NCBI GenBank assembly: GCA_964016885.1
Contig: OZ024742.1
Coordinates: 371,752,001-371,816,000, forward strand
Reading direction: 5' to 3'
Source of the DNA: Eledone cirrhosa
Taxonomy: Eukaryota
Length of the DNA stretch: 64,000 nucleotides
Every line of letters starts with the position of its first letter. Within the stretch, counting starts at the first letter, position 1. Both the position numbers and the translations under genes were made by a program. Below the pieces are notes generated by a model. The model was not told the origin of the DNA and ran no database searches. It saw nothing but the letters and a program-made list of their open reading frames with translations. Below are positions 6,481 through 64,000 of the stretch, in pieces.

Positions 6481-6577
6481 TAGACTGTAGTATTTAGAGT
6501 AGGTAGACTATCATTTAGAGTAGGTAGACTATCATTTAGAGTAGATAGACTGTATTATTTAGAGTAGGTAGACTATC
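6481..6577 (-). repeat. Second copy of the same inverted block, offset 5584 bp
   Basis: Same sequence as 897-993, including the TAGATAGACTGTATTATTT variant. Confidence 0.95.
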
Positions 6578-9500
6578 TACTCTAAATGATAGTCTACCTA
6601 CTCTAAATGATAGTCTACCTACTCTAAATAATAGTCTACCTACTCTAAATGATAGTCTACCTACTCTAAATGATACAGTCTACCTACTCTAAATGATACA
6701 GTCTACCTACTCTAAATGATACAGTCTACCTACTCTAAATGATACAGCCTACCTACTCTAAATGATAGTCTACCTACTCTAAATAATAGTCTACCTACTC
6801 TAAATGATAGTCTACCTACTCTAAATGATACAGTCTACCTACTCTAAATGATAGTCTACCTACTCTAAATAATAGTCTACCTACTCTAAATGATAGTCTA
6901 CCTACTCTAAATGATACAGTTTACCTACTCTAAATGATAGTTTACCTACTCGAAATGATAGTCTACCTACTCTAAATAATACAGTCTACCTACTCTAAAT
7001 GATAGTCTACCTACTCTAAATGATAGCCTACCTACTCTAAATGATAGTCTACCTGCTCTAAATAATAGTCTACCTACTCTAAATGATAGTCTACCTACTC
7101 TAAATGATACAGCCTACCTACTCTAAATGACAGTCTACCTACTCTAAATAATACAGCCTACCTACTCTAAATGATAGTCTACCTACTCTAAATGATAGCC
7201 TACCTACTCTAAATAATACAGTCTACCTACTCTAAATAATAGTCTACCTACTCTAAATGATAGCCTACCTACTCTAAATAATACAGTCTACCTACTCTAA
7301 ATGATAGTCTACCTACTCTAAATGATACAGCCTACCTACTCTAAATGATAGTCTACCTACTCTAAATGATACAGCCTACCTACTCTAAATGATACAGCCT
7401 ACCTACTCTAAATTATACAGTCTAGCTACTCTAAATGATAGTCTACCTACTCTAAATGATACAGCCTACCTACTCTAAATGATAGTCTACCTACTCTAAA
7501 TGATACAGTCTACTTTCTCTAAATGATAGCCTACCTACTCTAAATAATACAGTCTACCTACTCTAAACGATAGTCTTCCTACTCTAAATGATAGTCTACC
7601 TGCTCTAAATAATAGTCTACCTACTCTAAATGATAGTCTACCTACTCTAAATGATAGTCTACCTACTCTAAGTGATAGTCTACCTACTCTAAGTGATAGT
7701 CTACCTACTCTAAGTGATTGTCTACCTACTCTAAATGATAGTCTACCTACTCTAAATGATAGCCTACCTACTCTAAATAATACAGTCTACCTACTCTAAA
7801 TAATAGTCTACCTACTCTAAATGATAGCCTACCTACTCTAAATAATACAGTCTACCTACTCTAAATGATAGTCTACCTACTCTAAATGATACAGCCTACC
7901 TACTCTAAATGATAGTCTACCTACTCTAAATGATACAGCCTACCTACTCTAAATGATACAGCCTACCTACTCTAAATGATACAGTCTACCTACTCTAAAT
8001 GATAGTCTACCTACTCTAAATGATACAGCCTACCTACTCTAAATGATAGTCTACCTACTCTAAATGATAGTCTACCTACTCTAAATGATAGTCTACCTAC
8101 TCTAAATAATAGTCTACCTACTCTAAATAATAGTCTACCTACTCTAAATAATAGTCTACCTACTCTAAATAATAGTCTACCTACTCTAAATAATAGTCTA
8201 CCTACTCTAAATAATAGCCTACCTACTCTAAATGATACAGCCTACCTACTCTAAATAATAGTCTACCTGCTCTAAATGATACAGTCTACCTACTCTAAAT
8301 AATAGTCTACCTACTTTAAATGATAGTCTACCTACTCTAAATGATAGTCTACCTACTCTAAATAATAGACTACCTACTCTAAATGATAGTCTACCTACTC
8401 TAAATGATACAGTCTACCTACTCTAAATGATAGCCTACCTACTCTAAATGATACAGTCTACCTACTCTAAATGATAGTCTACCTACTCTAAATGATACAG
8501 CCTACCTACTCTAAATGATACAGCCTACCTACTCTAAATGATACAGTCTACCTACTCTAAATGATAGTCTACCTACTCTAAATGATACAGTGTACCTACT
8601 CTAAATGATAGCCTACCTACTCTAAATGATACAGTCTACCTACTCTAAATGATAGTCTACCTACTCTAAATGATACAGTCTACCTACTCTAAATGATAGT
8701 CTACCTACTCTAAATGATAGTCTACCTACTCTAAATGATAGAGCCTACCTACTCTAAATGATAGTCTACCTACTCTAAATAATACAACCTACCTGCTCTA
8801 AATGATAGCCTACCTACTCTAAATGATAGTTTACCTACCCTAAATGATAGTCTACCTACTCTAAATGATACAGTCTATCTACTCTAAATAATAGTCTACC
8901 TACTCTAAATAATGGTCTACCTACTCTAAATGATACAGTCTACCTATTCTAAATGATAGTCTACCTACTCTAAATAATGGTCTACCTACTCTAAATGTTA
9001 CAGTCTACCTACTCTAAATGATAGTCTACCTACTCTAAATGATACAGCCTACCTACTCTAAATGATACAGTCTACCTACTCTAAATGATAGTCTACCTAC
9101 TCTAAATAATACAGACTACCTACTCTAAATAATAGTCTACCTACTCTAAATGATAGTCTACCTACTCTAAATGATAGTCTACCTACTCTAAATGATAGTC
9201 TACCTACTCTAAATGATAGTCTACCTACTCTAAATGATACAGCCTACCTACTCTAAATGATACAGCCTCCCTACTCTAAATGATAGTCTACCTACTCTAA
9301 ATGATAGTCTACCTACTCTAAATGATAGTCTACCTACTCTCAATGATAGTCTACCTACTGTAAATAATAGTCTACCTACTCTAAATAATACAGTCTACCT
9401 ACTCTAAATGATAGTCTACCTACTCTAAATGATAGTCTACCTACTCTAAATGATAGTCTACCTACTCTAAATGATACAGTCTACCTACTCTAAATGATAC

Positions 9501-40282: not shown

Positions 40283-40410
40283 TATTTCGCCACTGCCCAT
40301 TCCTAAATCAATACGCCGAAGAAGTAGACAAACGGTTTGAAGATTGGAAGCAATACAAGATGAGTGTTCCTACATATGGTGCCATTATTTTGGATCCAGA
40401 GATGAAGTTT
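40283..40410 (+). CDS. DCP2: DCP2 internal coding exon (probably equivalent to vertebrate exon 3): xFRHCPFLNQYAEEVDKRFEDWKQYKMSVPTYGAIILDPEMKF
   Basis: AG|...|GTAAGT boundaries, 128 bp. The W-x-x-Y-K-x-x-V-P-x-Y-G-A-I-I-L motif marks the end of the Dcp2 BoxA domain and the start of the Nudix domain. Confidence 0.93.
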
Positions 40411-40754: not shown

Positions 40755-42592
40755 GGACATGTAATGCTGCATGGTAGTGAGACATGGGCAGTGACTGCAG
40801 AGGACATGTGTTGCTACATGGTAGTGAGACATGGGCAGTGACTGCAGAGGACATGTGATGCTGCATGGTAGTGAGACATGGGCAGTGACTGCAGAGGACA
40901 TGTGTTGCTACATGGTAGTGAGACATGGGCAGTGACTGCAGAGGACATGTGTTGCTACATGGTAGTGAGACATGGGCAGTGACTGCAGAGGACATGTGAT
41001 GCTGCATGGTAGTGAGACATGGGCAGTGACTGCAGAGGACATGTGATGCTGCATGGTAGTGAGACATGGGCAGTGACTGCAGAGGACATGTGATGCTGCA
41101 TGGTAGTGAGACATGGGCAGTGACTGCAGAGGACATGTGTTGCTACATGGTAGTGAGACATGGGCAGTGACTGCAGAGGACATGTGATGCTGCATGGTAG
41201 TGAGACATGGGCAGTGACTGCAGCGGACATGTGATGCTGCATGGTAGTGAGACATGGGCAGTGACTGCAGAAGACATGTGGTGCTGCATGGTAGTGAGAC
41301 ATGGGCTGTGGCTGCAGAAGACATGTGGTGCTGCATGGTAGTGAGACATGGGCAGTGATTGCAGAAGACATGTGTTGCTACATGGTAGTGAGACATGGGC
41401 TGTGGCTGCAGAAGACATGTGGTGCTGCATGGTAGTGAAACATGGCTGTGGCTGCAGAAGACATGTGGTGCTGCATGGTAGTGAGACATGGGCAGTGACT
41501 GCAGAGGACATGTGATGCTGCATGGTAGTGAGACATGGGCAGTGACTGCAGAGGACATGTGATGCTGCATGGTAGTGAGACATGGGCAGTGACTGCAGAG
41601 GACATGTGATGCTGCATGGTAGTGAGACATGGGCAGTGACTGCAGAAGACATGTGGTGCTGCATGGTAGTGAGACATGGGCAGTGATTGCAGAAGACATG
41701 TGTTGCTACATGGTAGTGAGACATGGGCTGTGGCTGCAGAAGACATGTGGTGCTGCATGGTAGTGAAACATGGCTGTGGCTGCAGAAGACATGTGGTGCT
41801 GCATGGTAGTGAGACATGGGCAGTGATTGCAGAAGACATGTGTTGCTGCATGGTAATGAGACATGGGCAGTGACTGCAGAAGACATGTGATGCTGCATGG
41901 TAGTGAGACATGGGCAGTGACTGCAGAGGACATGTGATGCTGCATGGTAGTGAGACATGGGCAGTGACTGCAGAGGACATGTGTTGCTACATGGTAGTGA
42001 GACATGGGCAGTGACTGCAGAGGACATGTGATGCTGCATGGTAGTGAGACATGGGCAGTGACTGCAGAGGACATGTGATGCTGCATGGTAGTGAGACATG
42101 GGCTGTGGCTGCAGAAGACATGTGGTGCTGCATGGTAGTGAGACATGGGCAGTGATTGCAGAAGACATGTGTTGCTGCATGGTAATGAGACATGGGCAGT
42201 GACTGCAGAAGACATGTGGTGCTGCATGGTAGTGAAACATGGGCTGTGACTGCAAAAGACATGTGGTGCTGCATGGTAGTGAAACATGGGCTGTGACTAC
42301 AGAAGACATGTAGTACTACATGGTAGTGAGACATGTGTTGTGACTGCAGAAGACATGTGTTGCTACATGGTAGTGAAACATGGGCTGTGACTACAGAAGA
42401 CATGTGGTACTACATGGTAGTAAGACATGGGTTGTGACTGCAGAAGACATGTGTTGCTGCATGGTAATGAGACATGGGCAGTGACTGCAGAAGACATGTG
42501 GTGCTGCATGGTAGTGAAACATGGGCTGTGGCTGCAAAAGACATGTGGTGCTGCATGGTAGTGAAACATGGGCTGTGACTGCAGAAGACATG
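40755..42592 (+). repeat. 47-bp tandem repeat (~39 copies) derived from RTE LINE ORF2 (MLHGSETWAVTAEDM)
   Basis: Unit CATGTGATGCTGCATGGTAGTGAGACATGGGCAGTGACTGCAGAGGA translates to MLHGSETWAVTAED, matching MLHGSETW in the LINE ORFs 49125-49745 and 45600-46448. The last unit continues directly into LINE sequence (KLERNEATM). Confidence 0.95.
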
Positions 42593-43047: not shown

Positions 43048-43146
43048 GTGTTACTTGTTCAAGGTTACTGGGCCAAATCTAGCTGGGGGTTCCCAAAAGG
43101 TAAAATTAATGAAGATGAAACAGAACAAGAATGTGCAGTGAGAGAG
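43048..43146 (+). CDS. DCP2: DCP2 coding exon: [33 protein letters not shown] (first half of the Nudix box)
   Basis: TTTTTCAG|GTG ... GAG|GTAAGT, 99 bp, phase 0/0. Contains WGFPKGK and GX5EX7RE. Confidence 0.95.
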
Positions 43147-43860: not shown

Positions 43861-44363
43861 TAAGTCGACAGGTTAAAATTAACCTTGTTTATTCATATTT
43901 GCTGTTATATATATTTCGGTGATAACCATTATTCAACAGCTATAACCTTATCAGACAGAAGTTGAATAGGAAAATAGAAAAGCATAATAATGGAACAAAG
44001 TTTACCTCCATTATTTTAATTTTTTGAGGGCGGTGGATTGGCAGTATCGGTAGAGGGTCGGACGCCATGCTTTCCAGCATAGTTACGTCCCTTTACGATC
44101 TGAGTTCAAATCCCGCCGAGGTTGACTTTGCCTTTCATCCTTACGGGGTCGATAAAATAAAGTACCAGTAATGCACTGGGTAATTGCTGGCCTTGTGCCA
44201 AAAGTAGAAACAATTATTTTAATTTTTTGATATACCCAGTGTCAAAGTATGGTGTTGTTTTCTCAAAGAACTGATGAGGTTATAGCTGTTGAATAATGGT
44301 TATCACTGAAATATATATATATCAGCGAATATGAAATAAACGATGTTAATTTTAAACTGTTGA

Positions 44364-45197: not shown

Positions 45198-46372
45198 ATC
45201 ATCATCATCATCATCATCATCAACGTTTAACGTCCGTGTTCCACGCTTGCATGGGTTTGGACGGGGGTAGTCCCACTTGAGGCAAGAGTGATTGTCTTGC
45301 TCGCATAGGACTGTCTGGCAGGTTTTCTACAGTTGGATGCCCTTCCTAACACCAACCACATTTACAGTGTGGGTCTGGGAGGTTTTTACCGTGTTGCCTA
45401 CACGGCCACATTACAGTGTGGACTGTGTGTTTTTTTGTCGTGACACCTACACGATCTCATTTGTTTCGGCCTCGATGGCGCGGCACCAACATAACTTTAC
45501 ATAGAACGGGGTGGTGTGGATCGGGTGGGGGTGGTGGTGGTGGGACGGGGTGTATTTTGTTAGAGATGCCTACTGGCTGGAGTAGGTTTTACTATATATT
45601 TAGGTAAGGCGGGTCTTCTCTGTTACTGAGTACCGCCAAAGGTCTCGGTCCAGTGACATTGTCTTGGAGAGGTGTAAGTGTGTGATGTCGGAGTTTATCA
45701 GCTCGTCCCAGGTTTTTCTAGGTCTGCCTATTCCGTGACTACCGTCTATCTTTATTGCCCTGCACTTTGTTATACAGCTATCGACTTTCATGCGCATCAC
45801 GTGTCCATACCAACGTAGCCTTCTCTCGAGTAAACAACATCTGATCCCTCTTATCTCTAATTTTTTCCTTAGTTCGTTTATGCTTTGCCGTTCACGTATA
45901 TTACTGTTACACATCCAGCGGAGCATGCAAGCTTCGTTCCTCTCTAGTCTGCGTATATCCTCTGCACACAATGCCCAGGTCTCACTGCCATGCAGCATTG
46001 CTGTTCGTATGCAGGCATCGTACAACCTGCCTTTCATTTTTAGTGAGAACCCTTTAGCAGCTAATAGTGGTATAAGCTCTCTGAACTTTTTCCAACCAGT
46101 TCTGACTCTAGCTACAGTACTTTCAGAGCACCCTCCCCCACTGCTGATTTTATCGCCCAGGTAACGGAAGCTGTCCACTATTTCTATAGAACCCTCTGCG
46201 CAATTGAAAGAGCTAGTAGTTTGTGGGCACTTGCTGCTACTTATTGCACCAGAGCACCGGCCACATGTAAAATCTATGTTCTTAGTTAGCTTACCTGTGA
46301 TCCCACTACATCTTTTATGCACCCATACTTTGCATTTAGGACATAAAATGGAGTTTCTACCTACGCCTTTCC
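45198..46372 (-). mobile_element. 5'-truncated RTE LINE (PHD-like finger remnant, RT C-terminus, 3'UTR, tail)
   Basis: ORF 45600-46448 reads SILCPKCKVWVHKRCSG...FRYLG...MLHGSETW...RLRWYGHVMR...GRPRKTW. (CAT)n tail at 45198-45221; truncated at (TA)n 46373-46398. Confidence 0.93.
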
Positions 46373-47099: not shown

Positions 47100-49944
47100 G
47101 TGAAGCTTCAATTCAGAGACAGGAAGCATACACACACCCCTGCAAAAATCTACCCTTTCCCATGAATGTTGACAAATGCCAAAAACTCCATCAATGTAAG
47201 CACACTGAAAGGAAGAGCAGGAGAAATCGTAGAAATGCTAGAGCGAAAGGAAATTGATGTATGCTGTGTGCATGAGACTAGATGGAGAGGAGAGTCTGCT
47301 AGAGTCCTTATAGGAAAAAGTCAGTGCTACAAATTTTTCTGGGTGGGAAATGACGATGGGATGGGTGGTGTAGGTATCCTACTAGCTGACGAACCTGGAA
47401 ACAGAAGCCAACCTGGAGAAGAAAGATCTGGAAGCTGCAAGACCCCTCAACCAGTAACAGATTTAAAGATATTTTGCTCAACGCCTATGACAGTAAAGAA
47501 GAACAGATAGAGACATTCAATGTAGAAGAACACTGGGAGTTCCTAAAAAATAACTTACTAGAGGCGACGGATGAGATCTGTGGCTGGAGTAAGACCACAG
47601 GCAGGAGGAGAGTAACTTGGTGGTGGAACAATAAGGTAGATGAGGCAGTTAAGGACAAGAGACAGGCATGGAAAGAATGGAAGAACGGGGGAAGCAGGGT
47701 ACATTACATAGAGACCAGGAGGGAAGCTAGGCGACAAGTATACTTAGCTAGAAGGGAAGCAGAGGATAGAAAATTCAAGCATGTTTTGCAATGTGAGGAC
47801 CAGAAACAGGAGGTGTTCAAGATTGCGAGGCAGTGTGTCAGAGAGAATTGTGATGTCATTGGAGAGAAGTGTATCCAGAATGATAAAGGTGAGCTTGCTC
47901 TCACAAGTGCTGAGAAGAAAGATGCGTGGAAGAGCCATTATGATAGATTACTAAATGAGGAGAATGCATGGGAAGAAGACACCCTACCCCAAGTAGACCC
48001 TATAAAGGGGTCAGCAGCAGCGTAGTAAGTAAGGCAATCAAAGATATGAAGACGGAGAAGGCAATTGGTCCATCGGGTGTAGCTGCCGAGATGCTGAAGG
48101 CATCTGGGTCTGTAGGTCACACTATAACCACACGTATTGTTAACCAGGTAATACTAGGTGTCATACCAAAAGATTGGTGCAGTAGCATCATTGTCAACTG
48201 TTACAAAGGTAAATGTGATGCACTAGATAGAGGAAACTATAGAGGTATAAAGCTGATGGACCAGATCATGAAAGTAACAGAAAGAGTTATAGCACAGTTG
48301 ATTAGGGACCGGGTGAAACTAGATGAGATGCAATTTGGGTTTGTGCCAGGAAGAGGCACCACTGATGCCCTCTTCCTTGTGAGCCAGTTACAGGAAAAGT
48401 ACCTAGCTAAAAGTAAGCCACTCTACCTGGCATTCGTCAATCTCGAGAAAGCCTTTGACAGAGTTGCCCGTGCTATAATCTGGTGGGCTCTTAGAAAACT
48501 AGGAGTAGATGAATGGCTTGTGAAAGCTGTACAAGCCATGTATAGGGGAGCAGTCAGCGAAGTTAGGATTAGCAATGACTATAGCGAGGAATTTGGCGTA
48601 CAGATCGGTGTCCACCAGGGCTCTGTTCTTAGCCCTCTCCTGTTCATCATAGTCCTGCAGGCAATAACGGAGGAGTTTTAAGACCGGATGCCCATGGGAA
48701 CTCCTGTATGCAGATGACCTCGCACTTATAGCTGAATCTATGGTAGAACTAGAGAAGAAATTCCAAACTTGGAAGCAGGGACTAGAGAGAAAGGGTCAAC
48801 CTGACAAAGACTAAGGTCCTTGTAAGTAGACGAGAAAACAGAACCCAGATCCCCTCAGGGAAATGGCCTTGCTCACTATGTAGGAAAGGTGTAGGTAAGA
48901 ACTCCATCCTTTGCCCCAAATGCAAACAATGGGTACACAAGAGATGTAGCGGGATCTCAGGAAGCTTAACTAAGAATGTAGGCTTCACATGTAGCAGCTG
49001 TGCTGGGACAGCAAGCAGTAAACTCTGGGAGGGCTCTGTAGAAACAGTAGACAGCTTCTACTACCTAGGTGCCCGAATTAGCAGCGGAGGTGGGTGTTCG
49101 GAAAGTACAATAACTAGGGTAAGAATGGGATGGAAGAAGTTCAGGGAGCTACTGCCACTGCTAGCTGTAAAAGGCTTTTCCCTCAAAATGAAAAGCAGAC
49201 TGTATGATGTGTGTATACGAACAGCAATGTTACATGGTAGTGAGACCTGGGCGCTGAAGGTGGAAGACTTACGTAGATTAGAAAGAAATGAAGCCTGCAT
49301 GCTCCGATGGATGTGTAATAGTAACATACGCGAACGACAAAGCATAAATGAATTGAGAGAGAGACTGAGCATAAGAGGAATCAAATGCTGTGTGCAGGAG
49401 AGGCAGTTGCATCGGTATGGACATGTGATGCGTATGAAGGATGACAGCTGCATAAAAAGGTGCAGAGCACTAGAAGTCAATGGAAACCGCGGAGTGGGGA
49501 GACCCAAGAAGACCTGGGATGAGGTGATAAAAGCCGACCTTACCCAATTACACCTCTCAAAAGCGATGACACACGACCGTGACCTCTGGTGTCACGCAGT
49601 AATACAGATGACCCGACGCCCCCACGGGTACCAGCCGAAGCTGAAGCATATAGACAATATGTCCCCACACCCTCCCACTGCAAAGTGGTCGTGGAGGTGC
49701 CACGGCAAAAAAGCACCCAGCCCACACTGTAAAGTGGATATGTAGGCGCCACGGAAAAAAAGCACCCCGCACTCACTGTAAATGAGGTTGGTGTTAGGAA
49801 GGGCATCCAGCTGTAGAAATCAAGCCAGAATCAGTTCCCGTATGAGCAAGGCATGGTCAGCCGACCGGACACTGCCCACAACAGGACAACCCGTCTAACC
49901 CATGCTAGCGTGGAAGAACGGATGTCAAACGGTGATGATGATGA

Positions 49945-50240: not shown

Positions 50241-50410
50241 ATAATGGTTTCTGATTTAGGCACAAGCCAACAATTTTGGAGGAGGGGAAAGTCGATTAAA
50301 TCGATCCCAATGCATTACTTGTACTTTATTTTATTGACCCCGTAAGGATGAAAGGCAAAGTTAACCTCAGCGGGATTTGAACTTAGAAAGTAAAGGGACG
50401 TAACTATGCT
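50241..50410 (-). mobile_element. SINE copy (head missing), same family as 44028-44212
   Basis: GACCCCGTAAGGATGAAAGGCAAAGTTAACCTCAGCGGGATTTGAAC...GGGACGTAACTATGCT is the reverse complement of the nested SINE. Confidence 0.88.
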
Positions 50411-50513
50411 ATAATAATTGTTTCTACGTTAGGCACAAGGCCAGCAATTACCCAGTGCATTACTGGTACTTTATTTTATCGACCCCGTAAGGATGAAAGG
50501 CAAAACTCAGAAT
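50411..50513 (-). mobile_element. Second adjacent SINE 3' fragment
   Basis: GGCACAAGGCCAGCAATTACCCAGTGCATTACTGGTACTTTATTTTATCGACCCCGTAAGGATGAAAGGCAAA is the reverse complement of ~44127-44199. Confidence 0.88.
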
Positions 50514-50885: not shown

Positions 50886-51038
50886 GTATTTGAAGAAACT
50901 GGATTCAACATTAGTAAATTCATCAACTCCAATGACTATTTTGAGAACCAAATGAATGACCAACTAACCCGACTTTATATCATCGCTGGTGTTTCTCTGG
51001 ACACCGAATTTCAGACCAAAACTCGTAAAGAAATAAAA
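50886..51038 (+). CDS. DCP2: DCP2 coding exon: VFEETGFNISKFINSNDYFENQMNDQLTRLYIIAGVSLDTEFQTKTRKEIK (second half of the Nudix box); missed by the ORF track
   Basis: TACAG|GTA ... AAA|GTAAGC, 153 bp, phase 0/0. It completes REVFEETGF and contains RLYII and TRKEI. Confidence 0.95.
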
Positions 51039-51061: not shown

Positions 51062-51170
51062 AGGTAGAGCGTCAGAATTGGTAGAACAATGGATAATATG
51101 CTAATGTGGTGTTCTGGCCCTTTATATTCTGAGTTCAACTTCTGCCATGATCAACTTTGTCTTTCATTCT
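51062..51170 (+). mobile_element. Degenerate SINE head/body that seeds the 28-bp array
   Basis: CAGAATTGGTAGA...CTGAGTTCAACTTCTGCC...ACTTTGTCTTTCATTCTTCTGGGGTTGATAAAATA aligns by eye to the 44028-44212 SINE. Confidence 0.8.
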
Positions 51171-51692
51171 TCTGGGGTTGATAAAATACCAGTCAAGTAC
51201 TGGGGTTGATAAAATACCAGTCAAGTACTGGAGTTGATAAAATACCAGTCAAGTACTGGGGTTGATAAAATACCAGTCAAGTACTGGGGTTGATATAATA
51301 CCAGTCAAGTACTGGGGTTGATAAAATACCAGTCAAGTACTGGGGTTGATAAAATACCAGTCAAGTACTGGGGTTGATATAATACCAGTCAAGTACTGGG
51401 GTTGATATAATACCAGTCAAGTACTGGAGTTGATATAATACCAGTCAAGTACTGGGGTTGATATAATTCCAGTCAAGTACTGGGGTTGATATAATACCAG
51501 TCAAGTACTGGGGTTGATATAATACCAGTCAAGTACTGGGGTTGATATAATACCAGTCAAGTACTGGGGTTGATATAATACCAGTCAAGTACTGGGGTTG
51601 ATATAATACCAGTCAAGTACTGGGGTTGATATAATACCAGTCAGGTACTGGGGTTGATATAATACCAGTCAAGTACTGGGGTTGATATAATA
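51171..51692 (+). repeat. 28-bp tandem repeat (~18 copies) TGGGGTTGATAWAATACCAGTCAAGTAC, SINE-derived
   Basis: 28-bp period seen directly; homologous to SINE GGGGTCGATAAAATAAAGTACCAGTAATGCACTGGG. Confidence 0.93.
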
Positions 51693-51940
51693 AACTTTGC
51701 TCTTCCTCCAAATTTGTTGACCTAAAGCTTAAATCAGAAATCAACATATTGGTGGAATAATTGGTTGTCATAAATTCATGGGTTTGATTTCTGGATTGGA
51801 TGTTGTGTTCTTGTTTTATTTTACAATGGAAGCACTGGGGTCTCTACCATGATAACACCTAAGAAACCTCTTCCTAGGACTTACACACTGTGAGGACAGT
51901 TGAGTTTGGCTGAAGATATGACAACCTCTCTAGTGTACAC

Positions 51941-52293
51941 AGTACATCCTGTAAAGTGGTAGTGCTGGTGACATAAAATACACCAAGTACACCCTGTAAA
52001 GTGGTAGTGCTGGTGACATGATAAAATACACCAAGTACACCCTGTAAAGTGGTAGTGCTGGTGACATGATAAAAGCACCTGGTGCACTCTGTAAAGTGGT
52101 AGTGCTGGTGCCGTGATAGAAGCACCTGGTGCACTCTGTAAAGTGGCTATTAGGAAGGGTGTCCAGTTATAGAAGCCATGCTAAAATATGGAACATAGCA
52201 AATTGTGGTTCCCTATCCAGTCTTGTCTTTGACTGTGACAATCAGTTAAAGCCATGCTAGTATAGAACACAAACATAACATGATGATGATGAT
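51941..52293 (+). mobile_element. RTE 3'UTR-type fragment with 4-5 tandem copies of a 45-48-bp motif and a (GAT)n tail
   Basis: CTGTAAAGTGG recurs at ~51949, 51994, 52042, 52089 and 52136, followed by TTAGGAAGGG...CCATGCTAG...TGATGATGATGAT as in the LINE 3'UTR at 49670-49947. Confidence 0.8.
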
Positions 52294-52440: not shown

Positions 52441-52492
52441 GTATGTTTCTCATTTCTCTTTTCACTCCTCATATTCTCTTCCTCGTTATTTC

Positions 52493-55400
52493 CAGCATAG
52501 CCCATTGGTTAGTGTGTTGGACTTGACAATTACAAGGTTGTGGGTTAAATTTCTAGACCAGACAGCATGGCCCATTGGTTAGTGTGTTGGACTTGACAAT
52601 TACAAGGTTGTGGGTTAAATTTCTAGACCAGACAGTATGGCCCATTGGTTAGTGTGTTGGACTTGACAATTACAAGGTTGTGGGTTCAATTTCTAGACCA
52701 GACAGCATGGCCCATTGGTTAGTGTGTTGGAATTGACAATTACAAGGTTGTGGGTTCAATTTCTAGACCAGACAGCATGGCCCATTGGTTAGTGTGTTGG
52801 ACTTGACAATTACAAGGTTGTGGGTTCAATTTCTAGACCAGACAGCATGGCCCATTGGTTAGTGTGTTGGAATTAACAATTACAAGGTTGTGGGTTCAAT
52901 TTCTAGACCAGACAGCATGGCCCATTGGTTAGTGTGTTGGACTTGACAATTACTAGGTCGTGGGTTCAATTTCTAGACCAAACAGCATGGCCCATTGGTT
53001 AGTGTGTTGGACTTGACAATTACAAGGTTGTGGGTTAAATTTCTAGACCAGACAGTATGGCCCATTGGTTAGTGTGTTGGACTTGACAATTACAAGGTTA
53101 TGGGTTCAATTTCTAGACCAGACAGCATGGCCCATTGGTTAGTGTGTTGGACTTGACAATTACAAGGTCGTGAGTTGAATTTCTAGACCAGACAGCATGG
53201 CCCATTGGTTAGTGTGTTGGACTTGACAATTACAGGGTTGTGGGTTCAATTTCTAGACCAGACAGCATGGCCCATTGGTTAGTGTGTTGGACTTGACAAT
53301 TACAAGGTTGTGGGTTCAATTTCTAGACCAGACAGCATGGCCCATTGGTTAGTGTGTTGGACTTGAGAATTACAAGGTTGTGGGTTCAATTTCTAGACCA
53401 GACAGCATTGTCCATTGGTTAGTGTGTTGGACTTGACAATTACAAGGTTGTGGGTTCAATTTCTAGACCAGACAACATGGCCCATTGGTTAGTGTGTTCG
53501 ACTTGACAATTACAAGGTTGTGGGTTCAATTTCTAGACCAGACAGCATGGCCCATTGGTTAGTGTGTTCGACTTGACAATTACAAGGTTGTGGGTTCAAT
53601 TTCTAGACCAGACAGCATTTCCATTGGTTAGTGAGTTGGACTTGACAATTACAAGGTTGTGGGTTCAATTTCTAGACCAGACAGCATGGCCCATTGGTTA
53701 GTGTGTTGGACTTGACAATTACAAGGTCGTGAGTTGAATCTCTAGACCAGACAGCATTGTCCATTGGTTAGTGTGTTGGACTTGACAATTACAAGGTTGT
53801 GGATTCAATTTCTAGACCAGACAGTATGGCCCATTGGTTAGTGTGTTGGACTTGACAATTACAAGGTTATGGGTTCAATTTCTAGACCAGACAGCATGGC
53901 CCATTGGTTAGTGTGTTGGACTTGACAATTACAAGGTCGTGAGTTGAATTTCTAGACCAGACAGCATGGCCCATTGGTTAGTGTGTTGGACTTGACAATT
54001 ACAGGGTTGTGGGTTCAATTTCTATACCAGACAGCATGGCCCATTGGTTAGTGTGTTGGACTTGACAATTACAAGGTTGTGGGTTCAATTTCTAGACCAG
54101 ACAGCATGGCCCATTGGTTAGTGTGTTCGACTTGACAATTACAAGGTTGTGGGTTCAATTTTTAGACCAGCCAGCATGGTCCATTGGTTAGTGTGTTGGA
54201 CTTGACAATTACAAGGTTGTGGGTTCAATTTCTAGACCAGACAGCATGGCCCATTGGTTAGTGTGTTGGACTTAACAATTACAAGGGTGTGGGTTCTATT
54301 TCTAGACCAGACAGCATGGCCCATTGGTTAGTGTGTTGGACTTGACAATTACAAGGTTGTGGGTTAAATTTCTAGACCAGACAGTATGGCCCATTGGTTA
54401 GTGTGTTGGACTTGACAATTACAAGGTTGTGGGTTCAATTTCTAGACCAGACAGCATGGCCCATTGGTTAGTGTGTTGGACTTGACAATTACAAGGTTGT
54501 GGGTTAAATTTCTAGACCAGACAGTATGGCCCATTGGTTAGTGTGTTGGACTTGACAATTACAAGGTTATGGGTTCAATTTCTAGACCAGACAGCATGGC
54601 CCATTGGTTAGTGTGTTAGACTTGACAATTACAAGGTCGTGAGTTGAATTTCTAGACCAGACAGCATGGCCCATTGGTTAGTGTGTTGGACTTGACAATT
54701 ACAGGGTTGTGGGTTCAATTTCTAGACCAGACAGCATGGCCCATTGGTTAGTGTGTTGGACTTGACAATTACAAGGTTGTGGGTTCAATTTCTAGACCAG
54801 ACAGCATGGCCCGTTGGTTAGTGTGTTGGACTTGACAATTACAAGGTTGTGGGTTCAATTTCTAGACCAGACAGCATTGTCCATTGGTTAGTGTGTTGGA
54901 CTTGACAATTACAAGGTTGTGGGTTCAATTTCTAGACCAGACAGCATGGCCCATTGGTTAGTGTGTTCGACTTGACAATTACAAGGTTGTGGGTTCAATT
55001 TCTAGACCAGACAGCATGGTCCATTGGTTAGTGTGTTGGACTTGACAATTACAAGGTTGTGGGTTCAATTTCTAGACCAGACAGCATGGCCCATTGGTTA
55101 GTGTGTTGGACTTGACAATTACAAGGTTATGGGTTCAATTTCTAGACCAGACAGCATGGCCCATTGGTTAGTGTGTTGAACTTGACAATTACAAGGTCTT
55201 GAGTTGAATTTCTAGACCAGACAGCATGGCCCATTGGTTAGTGTGTTGGACTTGACAATTACAAGGTTATGGGTTCAATTTCTAGACCAGACAGCATGGC
55301 CCATTGGTTAGTGTGTTGGACTTGACAATTACAAGGTCGTGAGTTGAATTTCTAGACCAGACAGCATGGCCCATTGGTTAGTGTGTTGGACTTGACAATT

Positions 55401-58400
55401 ACAGGGTTGTGGGTTCAATTTCTAGACCAGACAGCATGGCCCATTGGTTAGTGTGTTGGACTTGACAATTACAAGGTTGTGGGTTCAATTTCTAGACCAG
55501 ACAGCATGGCCCATTGGTTAGTGTGTTGGACTTGACAATTACAAGGTTGTGGGTTCAATTTCTAGACCAGACAGCATTGTCCATTGGTTAGTGTATTGGA
55601 CTTGACAATTACAAGGTTGTTGGTTCAATTTCTAGACCAGACAGCATGGCCCATTGGTTAGTGTGTTCGACTTGACAATTACAAGGTTGTGGGTTCAATC
55701 TCTAGACCAGACAGCATGGCCCATTTTTTAGTGTGTTGGACTTGACAATTACAAGGTTGTGGGTTCAATCTCTAGACCAGACAGCATGGCCCATTTTTTA
55801 GTGTGTTGGACTTGACAATTACAAGGTTGTGGGTTCAATCTCTAGACCAGACAGCATGGCCCATTGGTTAATGTGTTGGACTTGACAATTACAGGGTTGT
55901 GGGTTCAATTTCTAGACCAGACAGCATGGCCCATTGGTTAGTGTGTTCGACTTGACAATTACAAGGTTGTGGGTTCAATTTCTAGACCAGACAGCATGGT
56001 CCATTGGTTAGTGTGTTGGACTTGACAATTACAAGGTTGTGGGTTCAATTTCTAGACCAGACAGCATGGTCCATTGGTTAGTGTGTTGGACTTAACAATT
56101 ACAAGGGTGTGGGTTCTATTTCTAGACCAGACAGCATGGCCCATTGGTTAGTGTGTTGGACTTGACAATTACAAGGTTGTGGGTTAAATTTCTAGACCAG
56201 ACAGTATGGCCCATTGGTTAGTGTGTTGGACTTGACAATTACAAGGTTGTGGGTTCAATTTCTAGACCAGACAGCATGGCCCATTGGTTAGTGTGTTGGA
56301 CTTGACAATTACAAGGTCGTGAGTTGAATTTCTAGACCAGACAGCATGGCCCATTGGTTAGTGTGTTGGACTTGACAATTACAGGGTTGTGGGTTCAATT
56401 TCTAGACCAGACAGCATGGCCCATTGGTTAGTGTGTTGGACTTGACAATTACAAGGTTGTGGGTTCAATTTCTAGACCAGACAGCATGGCCCATTGGTTA
56501 GTGTGTTGGACTTGACAATTACAAGGTTGTGGGTTCAATTTCTAGACCAGACAGCATGGCCCATTGGTTAGTGTGTTCGACTTGACAATTACAAGGTTGT
56601 GGGTTCAATTTCTAGACCAGACAGCATTGTCCATTGGTTAGTGTGTTGGACTTGACAATTACAAGATTGTGGGTTCAATTTCTAGACCAGACAGCATGGC
56701 CCATTTTTTAGTGTGTTGGACTTGACAATTACAAGGTTGTGGGTTCAATCTCTAGACCAGACAGCATGGCCCATTTTTTAGTGTGTTGGACTTGACAATT
56801 ACAAGGTTGTGGGTTCAATCTCTAGACCAGACAGCATGGCCCATTGGTTAGTGTGTTGGACTTGACAATTACAAGGTTGTGGATTCAATTTCCAGACCAG
56901 ACAGTATGGCCCATTGGTTAGTGTGTTGGACTTGACAATTACAAGGTTATGGGTTCAATTTCTAGACCAGACAGCATGGCCCATTGGTTAGTGTGTTGGA
57001 CTTGACAATTACAAGGTCGTGAGTTGAATTTCTAGACCAGACAGCATGGCCCATTGGTTAGTGTGTTGGACTTGACAATTACAGGGTTGTGGGTTCAATT
57101 TCTAGACCAGACAGCATGGTCCATTGGTTAGTGTGTTGGACTTGACAATTACAAGGTTGTGGGTTCAATTTCTAGACCAGACAGCATGGCCCATTGGTTA
57201 GTGTGTTGGACTTAACAATTACAAGGGTGTGGGTTCTATTTCTAGACCAGACAGCATGGCCCATTGGTTAGTGTGTTGGACTTGACAATTACAAGGTTGT
57301 GGGTTAAATTTCTAGACCAGACAGTATGGCCCATTGGTTAGTGTGTTGGACTTGACAATTACAAGGTTGTGGGTTCAATTTCTAGACCAGACAGCATGGC
57401 CCATTGGTTAGTGTGTTGGACTTGACAATTACAAGGTTGTGGGTTAAATTTCTAGACCAGACAGTATGGCCCACTGGTTAGTGTGTTGGACTTGACAATT
57501 ACAAGGTTATGGGTTCAATTTCTAGACCAGACAGCATGGCCCATTGGTTAGTGTGTTAGACTTGACAATTACAAGGTCGTGAGTTGAATTTCTAGACCAG
57601 ACAGCATGGCCCATTGGTTAGTGTGTTGGACTTGACAATTACAGGGTTGTGGGTTCAATTTCTAGACCAGACAGCATGGCCCATTGGTTAGTGTGTTGGA
57701 CTTGACAATTACAAGGTTGTGGGTTCAATTTCTAGACCAGACAGCATGGCCCGTTGGTTAGTGTGTTGGACTTGACAATTACAAGGTTGTGGGTTCAATT
57801 TCTAGATCAGACAGCATTGTCCATTGGTTAGTGTGTTGGACTTGACAATTACAAGGTTGTGGGTTCAATTTCTAGACCAGACAGCATGGCCCATTGGTTA
57901 GTGTGTTCGACTTGACAATTAGAAGGTTGTGGGTTCAATTTCTAGACCAGACAGCATGGTCCATTGGTTAGTGTGTTGGACTTGACAATTACAAGGTTGT
58001 GGGTTCAATTTCTAGACCAGACAGCATGGCCCATTGGTTAGTGTGTTGGACTTGACAATTACAAGGTTATGGGTTCAATTTCTAGACCAGACAGCATGGC
58101 CCATTGGTTAGTGTGTTGAACTTGACAATTACAAGGTCGTGAGTTGAATTTCTAGACCAGACAGCATGGCCCATTGGTTAGTGTGTTGGACTTGACAATT
58201 ACAAGGTTATGGGTTCAATTTCTAGACCAGACAGCATGGCCCATTGGTTAGTGTGTTGGACTTGACAATTACAAGGTCGTGAGTTGAATTTCTAGACCAG
58301 ACAGCATGGCCCATTGGTTAGTGTGTTGGACTTGACAATTACAGGGTTGTGGGTTCAATTTCTAGACCAGACAGCATGGCCCATTGGTTAGTGTGTTGGA

Positions 58401-61400
58401 CTTGACAATTACAAGGTTGTGGGTTCAATTTCTAGACCAGACAGCATGGCCCATTGGTTAGTGTGTTGGACTTGACAATTACAAGGTTGTGGGTTCAATT
58501 TCTAGACCAGACAGCATGGTCCATTGGTTAGTGTATTGGACTTGACAATTACAAGGTTGTGGGTTCAATTTCTAGACCAGACATCATGGCCCATTGGTTA
58601 GTGTGTTCGACTTGACAATTACAAGGTTGTGGGTTCAATCTCTAGACCAGACAGCATGGCCCATTTTTTAGTGTGTTGGACTTGACAATTACAAGGTTGT
58701 GGGTTCAATCTCTAGACCAGACAGCATGGCCCATTTTTTAGTGTGTTGGACTTGACAATTACAAGGTTGTGGGTTCAATCTCTAGACCAGACAGCATGGC
58801 CCATTGGTTAATGTGTTGGACTTGACAATTACAGGGTTGTGGGTTCAATTTCTAGACCAGACAGCATGGCCCATTGGTTAGTGTGTTGGACTTGACAATT
58901 ACAAGATTGTGGGTTCAATTTCTAGACCAGACAGCATGGCCCATTGGTTAGTGTGTTCGACTTGACAATTACAAGGTTGTGGGTTCAATTTCTAGACCAG
59001 ACAGCATGGTCCATTGGTTAGTGTGTTGGACTTGACAATTACAAGGTTGTGGGTTCAATTTCTAGACCAGACAGCATGGCCCATTGGTTAGTGTGTTGGA
59101 CTTAACAATTACAAGAGTGTGGGTTCTATTTCTAGACCAGACAGCATGGCCCATTGGTTAGTGTGTTGGACTTGACAATTACAAGGTTGTGGGTTAAATT
59201 TCTAGACCAGACAGTATGGCCCATTGGTTAGTGTGTTGGACTTGACAATTACAAGGTTGTGGGTTCAATTTCTAGACCAGACAGCATGGCCCATTGGTTA
59301 GTGTGTTGGACTTGACAATTACAAGGTCGTGAGTTGAATTTCTAGACCAGACAGCATGGCCCATTGGTTAGTGTGTTGGACTTGACAATTACAGGGTTGT
59401 GGGTTCAATTTCTAGACCAGACAGCATGGCCCATTGGTTAGTGTGTTGGACTTGACAATTACAAGGTTGTGGGTTCAATTTCTAGACCAGACAGCATGGC
59501 CCATTGGTTAGTGTGTTGGACTTGACAATTACAAGGTTGTGGGTTCAATTTCTAGACCAGACAGCATTGTCCATTGGTTAGTGTGTTGGACTTGACAATT
59601 ACAAGGTTGTGGGTTCAATTTCTAGACCAGACAGCATGGCCCATTGGTTAGTGTGTTCGACTTGACAATTACAAGGTTGTGGGTTTAATTTCTAGACCAG
59701 ACAGCATGGCCCATTGGTTAGTGTGTTCGACTTGACAATTACAAGGTTGTGGGTTCAATTTCTAGACCAGACAGCATTGTCCATTGGTTAGTGTGTTGGC
59801 CTTGACAATTACAAGATTGTGGGTTCAATTTCTAGACCAGACAGCATGGCCCATTTTTTAGTGTGTTGGACTTGACAATTACAAGGTTGTGGGTTCAATC
59901 TCTAGACCAGACAGCATGGCCCATTTTTTAGTGTGTTGGACTTGACAATTACAAGGTTGTGGGTTCAATCTCTAGACCAGACAGCATGGCCCATTGGTTA
60001 GTGTGTTGGACTTGACAATTACAAGGTTGTGGATTCAATTTCTAGACCAGACAGTATGGCCCATTGGTTAGTGTGTTGGACTTGACAATTACAAGGTTAT
60101 GGGTTCAATTTCTAGACCAGACAGCATGGCCCATTGGTTAGTGTGTTGGACTTGACAATTACAAGGTCGTGAGTTGAATTTCTAGACCAGACAGCATGGC
60201 CCATTGGTTAGTGTGTTGGACTTGACAATTACAGGGTTGTGGGTTCAATTTCTAGACCAGACAGCATGGCCCATTGGTTAGTGTGTTGGACTTGACAATT
60301 ACAAGGTTGTGGGTTCAATTTCTAGACCAGACAGCATGGCCCATTGGTTAGTGTGTTCGACTTGACAATTACAAGGTTGTGGGTTCAATTTCTAGACCAG
60401 ACAGCATGGTCCATTGGTTAGTGTGTTGGACTTGACAATTACAAGGTTGTGGGTTCAATTTCTAGACCAGACAGCATGGCCCATTGGTTAGTGTGTTGGA
60501 CTTAACAATTACAGGGGTGTGGGTTCTATTTCTAGACCAGACAGCATGGCCCATTGGTTAGTGTGTTGGACTTGACAATTACAAGGTTGTGGGTTAAATT
60601 TCTAGACCAGACAGTATGGCCCATTGGTTAGTGTGTTGGACTTGACAATTACAAGGTTGTGGGTTCAATTTCTAGACCAGACAGCATGGCCCATTGGTTA
60701 GTGTGTTCGACTTGACAATTACAAGGTTGTGGGTTCAATTTCTAGACCAGACAGCATGGTCCATTGGTTAGTGTGTTGGACTTGACAATTACAAGGTTGT
60801 GGGTTCAATTTCTCGACCAGACAGCATGGCCCATTGGTTAGTGTGTTGGACTTAACAATTACAAGGGTGTGGGTTCAATTTCTAGACCAGACAGCATGGC
60901 CCATTGGTTAGTGTGTTGGACTTAACAATTACAGGGGTGTGGGTTCTATTTCTAGACCAGACAGCATGGCCCATTGGTTAGTGTGTTGGACTTGACAATT
61001 ACAAGGTTGTGGGTTAAATTTCTAGACCAGACAGTATGGCCCATTGGTTAGTGTGTTGGACTTGACAATTACAAGGTTGTGGGTTCAATTTCTAGACCAG
61101 ACAGCATGGCCCATTGGTTAGTGTGTTCGACTTGACAATTACAAGGTTGTGGGTTCAATTTCTAGACCAGACAGCATGGTCCATTGGTTAGTGTGTTGGA
61201 CTTGACAATTACAAGGTTGTGGGTTCAATTTCTCGACCAGACAGCATGGCCCATTGGTTAGTGTGTTGGACTTAACAATTACAAGGGTGTGGGTTCTATT
61301 TCTAGACCAGACAGCATGCATGGCCCATTGGTTAGTGTGTTGGACTTGACAATTACAAGGTTGTGGGTTAAATTTCTAGACCAGACAGTATGGCCCATTG

Positions 61401-64000
61401 GTTAGTGTGTTGGACTTGACAATTACAAGGTTATGGGTTCAATTTCTAGACCAGACAGCATGGCCCATTGGTTAGTGTGTTGGACTTGACAATTACAAGG
61501 TCGTGAGTTGAATTTCTAGACCAGACAGCATGGCCCATTGGTTAGTGTGTTGGACTTGACAATTACAGGGTTGTGGGTTCAATTTCTAGACCAGACAGCA
61601 TGGCCAATTGGTTAGTGTGTTGGACTTGACAATTACAAGGTTGTGGGTTCAATTTCTAGACCAGACAGCATGGCCCACTGGTTAGTGTGTTGGACTTGAC
61701 AATTACAAGGTTGTGGGTTCAATTTCTAGACCAGACAGCATTGTCCATTGGTTAGTGTGTTGGACTTGACAATTACAAGGTTGTGGGTTCAATTTCTAGA
61801 CCAGACAGCATGGCCCATTGGTTAGTGTGTTCGACTTGACAATTACAAGGTTGTGGGTTCAATTTCTAGACCAGACAGCATGGTCCATTGGTTAGTGTGT
61901 TGGACTTGACAATTACAAGGTTGTGGGTTCAATTTATAGACCAGACAGCATGGCCCATTGGTTAGTGTGTTGGACTTAACAATTACAAGGTTGTGGGTTC
62001 AATTTCTAGACCAGACAGCATGGCCCATTGGTTAGTGTGTTGGACTTGACAATTACAAGGTTGTGGGTTCAATTTCTAGACCAGACAGCATGGCCCATTT
62101 TTTAGTGTGTTGGACTTGACAATTACAAGGTTGTGGGTTCAATCTCTAGACCAGACAGCATGGCCCATTTTTTAGTGTGTTGGACTTGACAATTACAAGG
62201 TTGTGGGTTCAATCTCTAGACCAGACAGCATGGCCCATTGGTTAGTGTGTTGGACTTGACAATTACAAGGTTGTGGATTCAATTTCTAGACCAGACAGTA
62301 TGGCCCATTGGTTAGTGTGTTGGACTTGACAATTACAAGGTTATGGGTTCAATTTCTAGACCAGACAGCATGGCCCATTGGTTAGTGTGTTGGACTTGAC
62401 AATTACAAGGTCGTGAGTTGAATTTCTACACCAGACAGCATGGCCCATTGGTTAGTGTGTTGGACTTGACAATTACAAGGTTGTGGGTTCAATTTCTAGA
62501 CCAGACAGCATGGCCCATTGGTTAGTGTGTTGGACTTGACAATTACAAGGTTGTGGGTTCAATTTCTAGACCAGACAGCATGGCCCATTGGTTAGTGTGT
62601 TCGACTTGACAATTACAAGGTTGTGGGTTCAATTTCTAGACCAGACAGCATGGTCCATTGGTTAGTGTGTTGGACTTGACAATTACAAGGTTGTGGGTTC
62701 AATTTCTAGACCAGACAGCATGGCCCATTGGTTAGTGTGTTGGACTTAACAATTACAAGGGTGTGGGTTCTATTTCTAGACCAGACAGCATGGCCCATTG
62801 GTTAGTGTGTTGGACTTGACAATTACAAGGTTGTGGGTTAAATTTCTAGACCAGACAGTATGGCCCATTGGTTAGTGTGTTGGACTTGACAATTACAAGG
62901 TTGTGGGTTCAATTTCTAGACCAGACAGCATGGCCCATTGGTTAGTGTGTTGGACTTGACAATTACAAGGTCGTGAGTTGAATTTCTAGACCAGACAGCA
63001 TGGCCCATTGGTTAGTGTGTTGGACTTGACAATTACAGGGTTGTGGGTTCAATTTCTAGACCAGACAGCATGGTCCATTGGTTAGTGTGTTGGACTTGAC
63101 AATTACAAGGTTGTGGGTTCAATTTCTAGACCAGACAGCATGGCCCATTGGTTAGTGTGTTGGACTTGACAATTACAAGGTTGTGGGTTCAATTTCTAGA
63201 CCAGACAGCATTGTCCATTGGTTAGTGTGTTGGACTTGACAATTACAAGGTTGTGGGTTCAATTTCTAGACCAGACAGCATGGCCCATTGGTTAGTGTGT
63301 TGGACTTGACAATTACAAGGTTGTGGGTTCAATTTCTAGACCAGACAGCATGGTCCATTGGTTAGTGTGTTGGACTTGACAATTACAAGGTTGTGGGTTC
63401 AATTTCTAGACCAGACAGCATGGCCCATTGGTTAGTGTGTTGGACTTAACAATTACAGGGGTGTGGGTTCTATTTCTAGACCAGACAGCATGGCCCATTG
63501 GTTAGTGTGTTGGATTGACAATTACAAGGTTGTGGGTTAAATTTCTAGACCAGACAGTATGGCCCATTGGTTAGTGTGTTGGATTTGACAATTACAAGGT
63601 TGTGGGTTCAATTTCTAGACCAGACAGCATGGCCCATTGGTTAGTGTGTTCGACTTGACAATTACAAGGTTGTGGGTTCAATTTCTAGACCAGACAGCAT
63701 GGTCCATTGGTTAGTGTGTTGGACTTGACAATTACAAGGTTGTGGGTTCAATTTCTAGACCAGACAGCATGGCCCATTGGTTAGTGTGTTGGACTTGACA
63801 ATTACAAGGTTGTGGGTTCAATTTCTAGACCAGACAGCATTGTCCATTGCTTAGTGTGTTGGACTTGACAATTACAAGGTTGTGGGTTCAATTTCTAGAC
63901 CAGACAGCATGGCCCATTGGTTAGTGTGTTCGACTTGACAATTACAAGGTTGTGGGTTCAATTTCTAGACCAGACAGCATGGTCCATTGGTTAGTGTGTT
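52493..64000 (+). repeat. 70-bp tandem array (>=160 copies) of a tRNA-like SINE-head unit; runs off the window end
   Basis: Unit CAGCATGGCCCATTGGTTAGTGTGTTGGACTTGACAATTACAAGGTTGTGGGTTCAATTTCTAGACCAGA. A-box-like TGGCCCATTGG and B-box-like GGTTCAATTTC occur at tRNA spacing. Confidence 0.95.

Follow-up and report, generated by a model that had tools for sequence, protein, structure and literature searches.

Does a long run of tRNA-like units inside a protein-coding gene engage the RNA polymerase III (Pol III) machinery that its motifs call to mind, or is it an inert satellite? The question is raised by a stretch of 64,000 nucleotides from the octopus Eledone cirrhosa (assembly GCA_964016885.1, contig OZ024742.1, positions 371,752,001 to 371,816,000 of the forward strand; hereafter the window), in which a tandem array of a 70-bp unit lies in an intron of DCP2, an mRNA-decapping gene. 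A sequence-only reading had taken the array for a satellite made of the tRNA-derived head of a short interspersed element (SINE), perhaps serving as a TFIIIC/Pol III platform or insulator, with variants carrying six consecutive Ts (T6) that might punctuate multimeric transcripts. Our analysis indicates that the array is likely an inert SINE-derived satellite, of a kind already described in reptiles and amphibians.

The array runs head to tail over 52493–64000, with 164.4 copies at 95% matches according to Tandem Repeats Finder. Splitting by alignment yielded 164 full units (161 of 70 bp, two of 69 bp and one of 74 bp) and 26 bp at the window edge. Because the array runs off the end of the window, 164 units is a lower bound, and the 3′ end lies beyond. 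The units show 97.6% mean identity and fall into 54 distinct types, with 20 units matching the consensus exactly. A long head-to-tail array, a homogeneous unit and block duplications (see below) mark it as satellite DNA. The array and its host gene were mapped as follows, all on the plus strand.

52493–64000 (+): 70-bp tandem array, 164 full units and a partial one, by Tandem Repeats Finder and alignment splitting
52773–52842 (+): consensus-identical unit, resembling tRNA-Arg(TCT), lacking both cloverleaf and CpG
40283–40410 (+): DCP2 exon, box A end; Pfam DCP2 match below cut-off
43048–43146 (+): DCP2 exon, Nudix motif
50886–51038 (+): DCP2 exon, matching Octopus bimaculoides and O. vulgaris entries at 100% identity
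52328–52440 (+): DCP2 exon, residues 207–244 of P0002; donor GT at 52441

The last exon upstream of the array is 100% identical to residues 207–244 of Octopus DCP2, a protein of 405 residues. The array is intronic, because this exon ends at residue 244 and the protein continues to residue 405. A gap of 52 bp separates the exon end from the first unit. Both the length of at least 11.5 kb and the start about 50 bp past a DCP2 exon, inside a Pol II intron, had been read correctly from the sequence. All four DCP2 exons upstream of the array are intact and 98–100% identical to database DCP2. Reads were compared in four of ten runs, X1, X4, X6 and X8, the last from another sample under the same species label. 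In X1, summed contig depth was 6.3 on unique flank versus 20,000–50,000 on the unit, a ratio of roughly 3,000–8,000 that does not amount to a copy number. The 70-bp family is probably far larger genome-wide than the 164 units seen, with thousands hinted at by read depth.

Likeness to tRNA was measured against a profile that had not been selected for resemblance to the unit. It was built from 30 loci of the 43 tRNA matches in one bacterial genome (G001); the one chosen by pattern was dropped, and 27 class I tRNAs (at most 78 nt) were left. The unit scored 11.9 bits against this profile, a score reached by none of 2000 dinucleotide shuffles (maximum 10.4), and its minus strand scored −1.3. The best pairwise score of the unit with a tRNA was reached by 1 of 500 shuffles. 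An earlier test (score 73, 0 of 500 shuffles) was discarded as circular, since its tRNAs had been fetched with a pattern derived from the unit.

The isotype was approached with a pattern holding the unit's letters around the anticodon and T arms and leaving the anticodon and D arm free. It fetched 121 loci, of which ARAGORN called 97 as tRNA-Arg(tct), 2 as Pyl and 1 as undetermined, with no call for 21; Rfam confirmed tRNA in 7 of the 10 loci tried. The match reaches into the A-box arm, a part not used for selection. Core identity between the unit and tRNA-Arg(TCT) was 69–76% over 22 distinct genes, selected letters counted, and 49–51 of 74 positions were identical to three fetched tRNA-Arg(TCT) genes. 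Searches on the phage side gave only matches to tRNA-Thr at E = 7 (blastn with the unit) and no match to the isotype pattern in viral contigs.

The unit is nonetheless no tRNA gene, which would have a cloverleaf with a paired acceptor stem. Laid on the cloverleaf, it keeps 3 of 7 acceptor pairs, 3 of 4 in the D stem, 3 of 5 in the anticodon stem and 4 of 5 in the T stem. Compared with a tRNA-Arg(TCT) gene it has a changed anticodon and an extra loop base, and neither ARAGORN nor Rfam calls a tRNA in it; at E values up to 10, Rfam returned one chance microRNA match and no tRNA. It folds no better than its shuffles (z = −0.51). The unpaired acceptor stem had been seen in the letters, and a low or pseudogene-like tRNA score had been expected. 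CpG has also been lost: the consensus unit has none, and the whole array holds 39 where about 516 are expected. At the CpGs of two tRNA-Arg genes, 3 of 5 read CA or TG in the unit, and at those of a third, 2 of 5. This would fit decay of a methylated copy before amplification. The loss of the CpGs, of the cloverleaf and of the C at tRNA position 61 in the B box would all predate amplification, because they are common to all 164 units.

What kind of tRNA-like sequence gave rise to the unit? Judging from sequence comparison, a tRNA-derived SINE whose head has decayed is the most likely source. The four best-scoring relatives fetched with the isotype pattern are not tRNAs; in each, a non-tRNA body comes after a head resembling tRNA-Arg. 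The changed loop and the 3′ end of the unit recur in them, and there they match the unit more closely than tRNA does (44/52 and 48/61 identities). Four related loci have a common body and partly different flanks, and are putative SINEs. Unit-like sequence also occurs in X1 on two single contigs, where it follows other tRNA-like 5′ ends and in one case lacks the unit's extra loop base. The tRNA-derived head proposed earlier is upheld by the profile, the isotype pattern and the core identity, and the SINE step is likely but unproven.

Octopus tRNA-derived SINEs named OK, OR1 and OR2 were reportedly described by Ohshima and Okada in 1994. The heads of OR1 and OR2 derive from tRNA-Arg. These families would be the likeliest source of the unit. 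SINEs make up 11.6% of the O. vulgaris genome (PMC13282606), and the octopus SINE complement is dominated by tRNA-Core and tRNA-Deu (PMC8967140). A snail SINE with a tRNA-Arg head has been reported, in a source that also classes OR2 as a CORE SINE (PMC4758252).

Several points weigh against a tRNA-Arg-like SINE head. The wildcards of the isotype pattern were placed with a resemblance to this isotype already in mind, so that test was not blind. A relaxed SINE-head pattern came back empty from the metagenome, viral and prokaryote collections; nhmmer and blastn matched the unit to nothing else in the window; the supplements searched did not yield a parent SINE consensus; and no SINE remnant was seen at the 5′ end of the array, which abuts unique intron. 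A degenerate element at about 51745–51850 resembles the 3′ half of the unit (at about 51760–51800), mostly by transitions, with a score of 50. It was the best of 382 windows (next locus 44), but was rejected as a candidate parent because the match is so weak. Loose ends in X8, a restriction-site-associated (RAD) run, were likewise set aside as dispersed copies; they sit at AATT/CATG sites with an agreement of 0.36–0.48, and were read as ligation chimeras.

Eight metagenome loci (L174, L187, L213, L219, L154, L155, L183 and L194) have tRNA-Arg-like heads and non-tRNA bodies, and are probably SINEs of other animals. On another metagenome contig (L152) the tRNA-Arg-type pattern occurs four times, about 490 bp apart, as in tandem tRNA gene arrays. 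A similar tandem-tRNA-like arrangement, with about 1 kb between occurrences, was seen at L161–L163, L170–L173 and L197–L199.

An equally inert satellite could instead have grown straight from a tRNA-Arg(TCT) gene or pseudogene. The unit is almost exactly one tRNA long and contains no SINE body, its identity to tRNA-Arg(TCT) cores is that given above, and the array start shows no flanking SINE remnant. We consider this origin unlikely, in view of an anticodon loop and 3′ end that are closer to the non-tRNA, SINE-like elements, and of the X1 relatives with other 5′ ends.

Whether the unit can act as a promoter turns on its two boxes. An A-like motif (TGGCCCATTGG) and a B-like motif (GGTTCAATTTC) are present, 45 bp apart start to start.

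52778–52788 (+): A-box-like motif, unit positions 6–16; TRGYnnAnnnG in 140 of 164 units
52823–52833 (+): B-box-like motif, unit positions 51–61; T at the tRNA C61 position (52832) in 164 of 164 units

The motifs and their tRNA-like spacing had been recognized by the sequence-only reading, and they stand; the spacing falls in the tRNA range of 30–67 bp (PMC11811891). The consensus sequences it quoted (TRGCNNARYGG and GGTTCRANNCC) do not stand, with no strict match to either in the units. Against the published type 2 consensus (PMC4333407) the boxes differ in outcome: the A box, TRGYnnAnnnG, is found in 140 of 164 units, and the B box, GWTCRAnnC, in 0 of 164. All 164 units read T at position C61. 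Changes at C56 affect 31 units (to G in 16, A in 14 and T in 1); G53 differs in 4 units, and position 57 differs in 9. In a structure of human TFIIIC on a tRNA-Arg(TCT) gene, template-strand G74 is among the base contacts, and the same source cites a 370-fold loss of TFIIIC binding for C56G (PMC11811891); G74 lies opposite C61 by our own mapping, from that paper's numbering C69 = C56. A full B box is kept by two SINE-like copies in the same gene, at 44104 (+) and 50382 (−).

The boxes show no sign of constraint, being no less variable than the remainder of the unit. Per site and unit, the A box had 0.038 changes, the B box 0.042 and the other positions 0.017, and distinct variants per site were 1.00, 0.82 and 0.65, respectively; these raw figures count copies rather than independent events, which tempers the comparison. 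The unit likely lacks a working Pol III promoter.

Could the array nonetheless serve as a TFIIIC platform or insulator, with thousands of weak B boxes binding by number and without transcription? A-like and B-like motifs recur at tRNA spacing every 70 bp, and thousands of units are suggested by read depth. The B core GWTCRA is kept by 120 of 164 units, and the core together with the A box by 97, so that weak TFIIIC binding might add up over many copies. We hold this to be quite improbable: C61 is lost in all units and C56 in 31, both TFIIIC contact positions, and the boxes are unconstrained. The TFIIIC/Pol III platform put forward earlier is therefore not supported. Slightly less probable again is that thousands of tandem weak A and B boxes form a TFIIIC-coated boundary domain within an expressed Pol II gene, drawing in TFIIIC through their number instead of their affinity and shaping the chromatin or timing of DCP2.

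The array might also affect DCP2 by sheer bulk, whatever its tRNA origin, through a longer intron, local silencing or decoy donors. It begins 52 bp from the donor, is at least 11.5 kb long and contains 16 GTGAGT hexamers; another array, 40 kb or more in length, is found upstream. Such an effect seems very unlikely; the DCP2 exons are intact and close to their database counterparts, and satellite DNA, in 80 families, takes up 3.12% of the genome in O. vulgaris (PMC13282606). For O. minor, simple repeats are given as 14.7% (PMC6279123).

The hexamers, which resemble 5′ splice sites, occur in variant units from 53170 on, downstream of the real donor at 52441. The upstream array is a 21/22-bp satellite at 1–39963 that ends about 320 bp before a DCP2 exon. 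It is probably intronic as well, because DCP2 residues 1–79 are absent from the window. Its unit has no match elsewhere in the window.

T6 is a canonical Pol III terminator. As the sequence-only reading had it, most units lack a plus-strand run of four or more Ts and a T6 variant recurs. Ten of the 164 units carry it, with T6 starting at 55724, 55794, 56704, 56774, 58664, 58734, 59854, 59924, 62098 and 62168, and they form adjacent pairs in 5 of 5 cases. One extra T5 lies at 54159, and the minus strand of the array has no T4. The pairs and the duplicated block associated with them are as follows.

55712–55851 (+): T6 pair 1, GG>TT at unit positions 15–16 and T>C at 59
56692–56831 (+): T6 pair 2
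58652–58791 (+): T6 pair 3, pair 1 as copied with the duplicated block
59842–59981 (+): T6 pair 4
62086–62225 (+): T6 pair 5
54172–55921 (+): 25-unit block, recurring 42 units later at 57112–58861, with 24 of 25 units within one difference; carries a T6 pair

All ten T6 units have one identical sequence, and no half-way form was seen among the units. The type occurs 10 times, versus 7–13 for other recurrent unit types. Successive pairs are separated by 14, 28, 17 and 32 units, and no pair occurs in the first 46 units. Unit types matched at a lag of 42 in 19 instances, versus a maximum of 15 in 1000 shuffles, and the five pairs fall into two shared neighbourhoods. Since one T6 pair lies inside the duplicated 25-unit block, copying rather than punctuation explains the pattern. 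Runs of four or more Ts are also within easy reach of the unit, by 4 single and 11 adjacent-double substitutions. The sequence T3CT, listed among non-canonical terminators (PMC4333407), already occurs 148 times in the array. No T6 row appeared in X1 or X8 at a 4% threshold, a result we did not use, because the change linked to T6 destroys an AATT site and short contigs of variants may be missed.

Multimeric Pol III transcripts ending at the T6 variants would call on a canonical terminator in an array whose units mostly lack T4, and there are precedents: PolIII/TAN, a tandem repeat of the newt, yields transcripts in vitro (PMC10702118), and intronic Pol III units exist (PMC4333407). We regard this as highly unlikely. 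The B box is broken, terminator-like runs arise easily and T3CT abounds, and the T6 units are a single clone, no commoner than other types, irregularly spaced, copied with their blocks and missing from the first 46 units. The punctuation once proposed for them is not supported.

That the array is an assembly artefact, misassembly being common in long near-identical arrays, is extremely unlikely: one X1 contig bridges the junction of exon and first unit with 0 differences (X1 is possibly the window's own source), raw reads of X8 contain the joint between tandem units as well as the two most frequent variants (in 20 and 17 of 126 first-mate-plus reads), and the 54 unit types show block structure, even if the exact array length may still be wrong.

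The closest known systems are the squamate satellites sSat1–3 of Vassetzky et al. 2023, likewise tandem arrays of a tRNA-related SINE piece (PMC10702118). Their units are about 70–290 nt in up to hundreds of copies, subvariants alternate, and long loci are the most uniform, with 94% at 320 units; the snake sSat3 is 67 nt with a box B, and sSat3Ppi2 matches the tRNA portion (PMC10702118). The Eledone unit is similarly homologous to a tRNA-related head. It differs from the squamate cases in being a cephalopod array, in lying in an intron of a protein-coding gene and in having a unit made up solely of the head, both boxes included. In sSats a longer terminal unit typically extends to the end of the SINE; no such unit was seen at the visible 5′ end. 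The array behaves as an sSat does, and is probably one itself.

The amphibian families PolIII/TAN (newt), OAX/satellite I (Xenopus), Rana/polIII and Hy/polIII are also tandem, with a tRNA-like Pol III promoter region (PMC10702118). Their units, where sizes are given in that source, are about 200–360 nt, and PolIII/TAN is noted there as transcribed in vitro; the present unit is 70 nt, with no other sequence and a broken B box. Tandem SINEs in bivalve introns share molluscan host, intronic site, direct tandem order and tRNA derivation, but are arrays of 2–15 near-whole elements (PMC11481361), whereas the present array has at least 164 copies of a head fragment. Our literature search found no description of this octopus satellite, although repeat libraries (the PMC13282606 deposit, Dfam, Repbase, SINEBase and the PMC4824008 supplement) may hold it.

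A history consistent with these observations can be proposed. The tRNA-Arg(TCT)-like head of an old SINE copy would have lost its cloverleaf, its CpGs and B-box C61 before amplification. The array then grew by block duplication, as the 25-unit block at lag 42 shows, and likely through unequal exchange. A single GG>TT change would have produced the T6 unit; duplication of that unit would have made the pair, and copying of blocks would have carried the pair to its five sites. The array would be transcribed only as part of the DCP2 pre-mRNA. We think it probable, on balance of the comparisons above, that a decayed SINE head was duplicated and amplified in this way, and that its array is now part of intron RNA that splicing removes.

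Three smaller arrays lie in the same gene, each grown within an older repeat copy.

40756–42592 (+): 47-bp array grown inside an old copy of a long interspersed element (LINE)-like sequence
51172–51692 (+): 28-bp array derived from the body of another SINE-like element
51941–52146 (+): 47-bp array grown inside a repeat 3′ tail

The first continues into a repeat copy that matches the LINE-like element at 49228–49576 with 65% identity over 351 bp. The second extends a SINE-like body 73% identical over 99 bp to 44082–44180. The third is within a tail 62% identical over 232 bp to 49709–49939. Together, the five arrays make up 84% of the window. The three arrays suggest that this genome tends to grow satellites from repeat fragments, and the 70-mer fits as a fourth case of such growth in DCP2. 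A broken LINE-like element spans 47100–49940, with endonuclease- and reverse transcriptase-like frames and many stops and frameshifts, and shorter related pieces lie at about 43670, 44480 and 45650–46020; the LINE-like label comes from frames read by eye, not from a family search. Copies of the other SINE-like family are at 44030–44180, 50310–50500 and 51070–51170, two of them with a full B box.

A unit with the consensus letters was also seen at low depth (52495–52590) in runs of two other organisms, X4 (organism B) and X6 (organism C). Of 104 letters of the DCP2 exon, 15 are different in X6, yet the unit there equals the consensus, at only 2.7 times the exon depth. We did not accept these matches as conservation; cross-contamination likely explains the X6 pattern. 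Were they not contamination, the unit would be conserved across species.

The array extends SINE-derived satellites to cephalopods, a modest addition. It also carries a caution: where a satellite has boxes like those of a promoter and variants like terminators, these can be scars of its ancestry. Should TFIIIC bind here, the array would be a natural setting in which to ask whether a boundary within a gene can arise from many weak B boxes. Four arrays in one octopus gene, each from a piece of an old repeat, suggest a general route to giant octopus introns.

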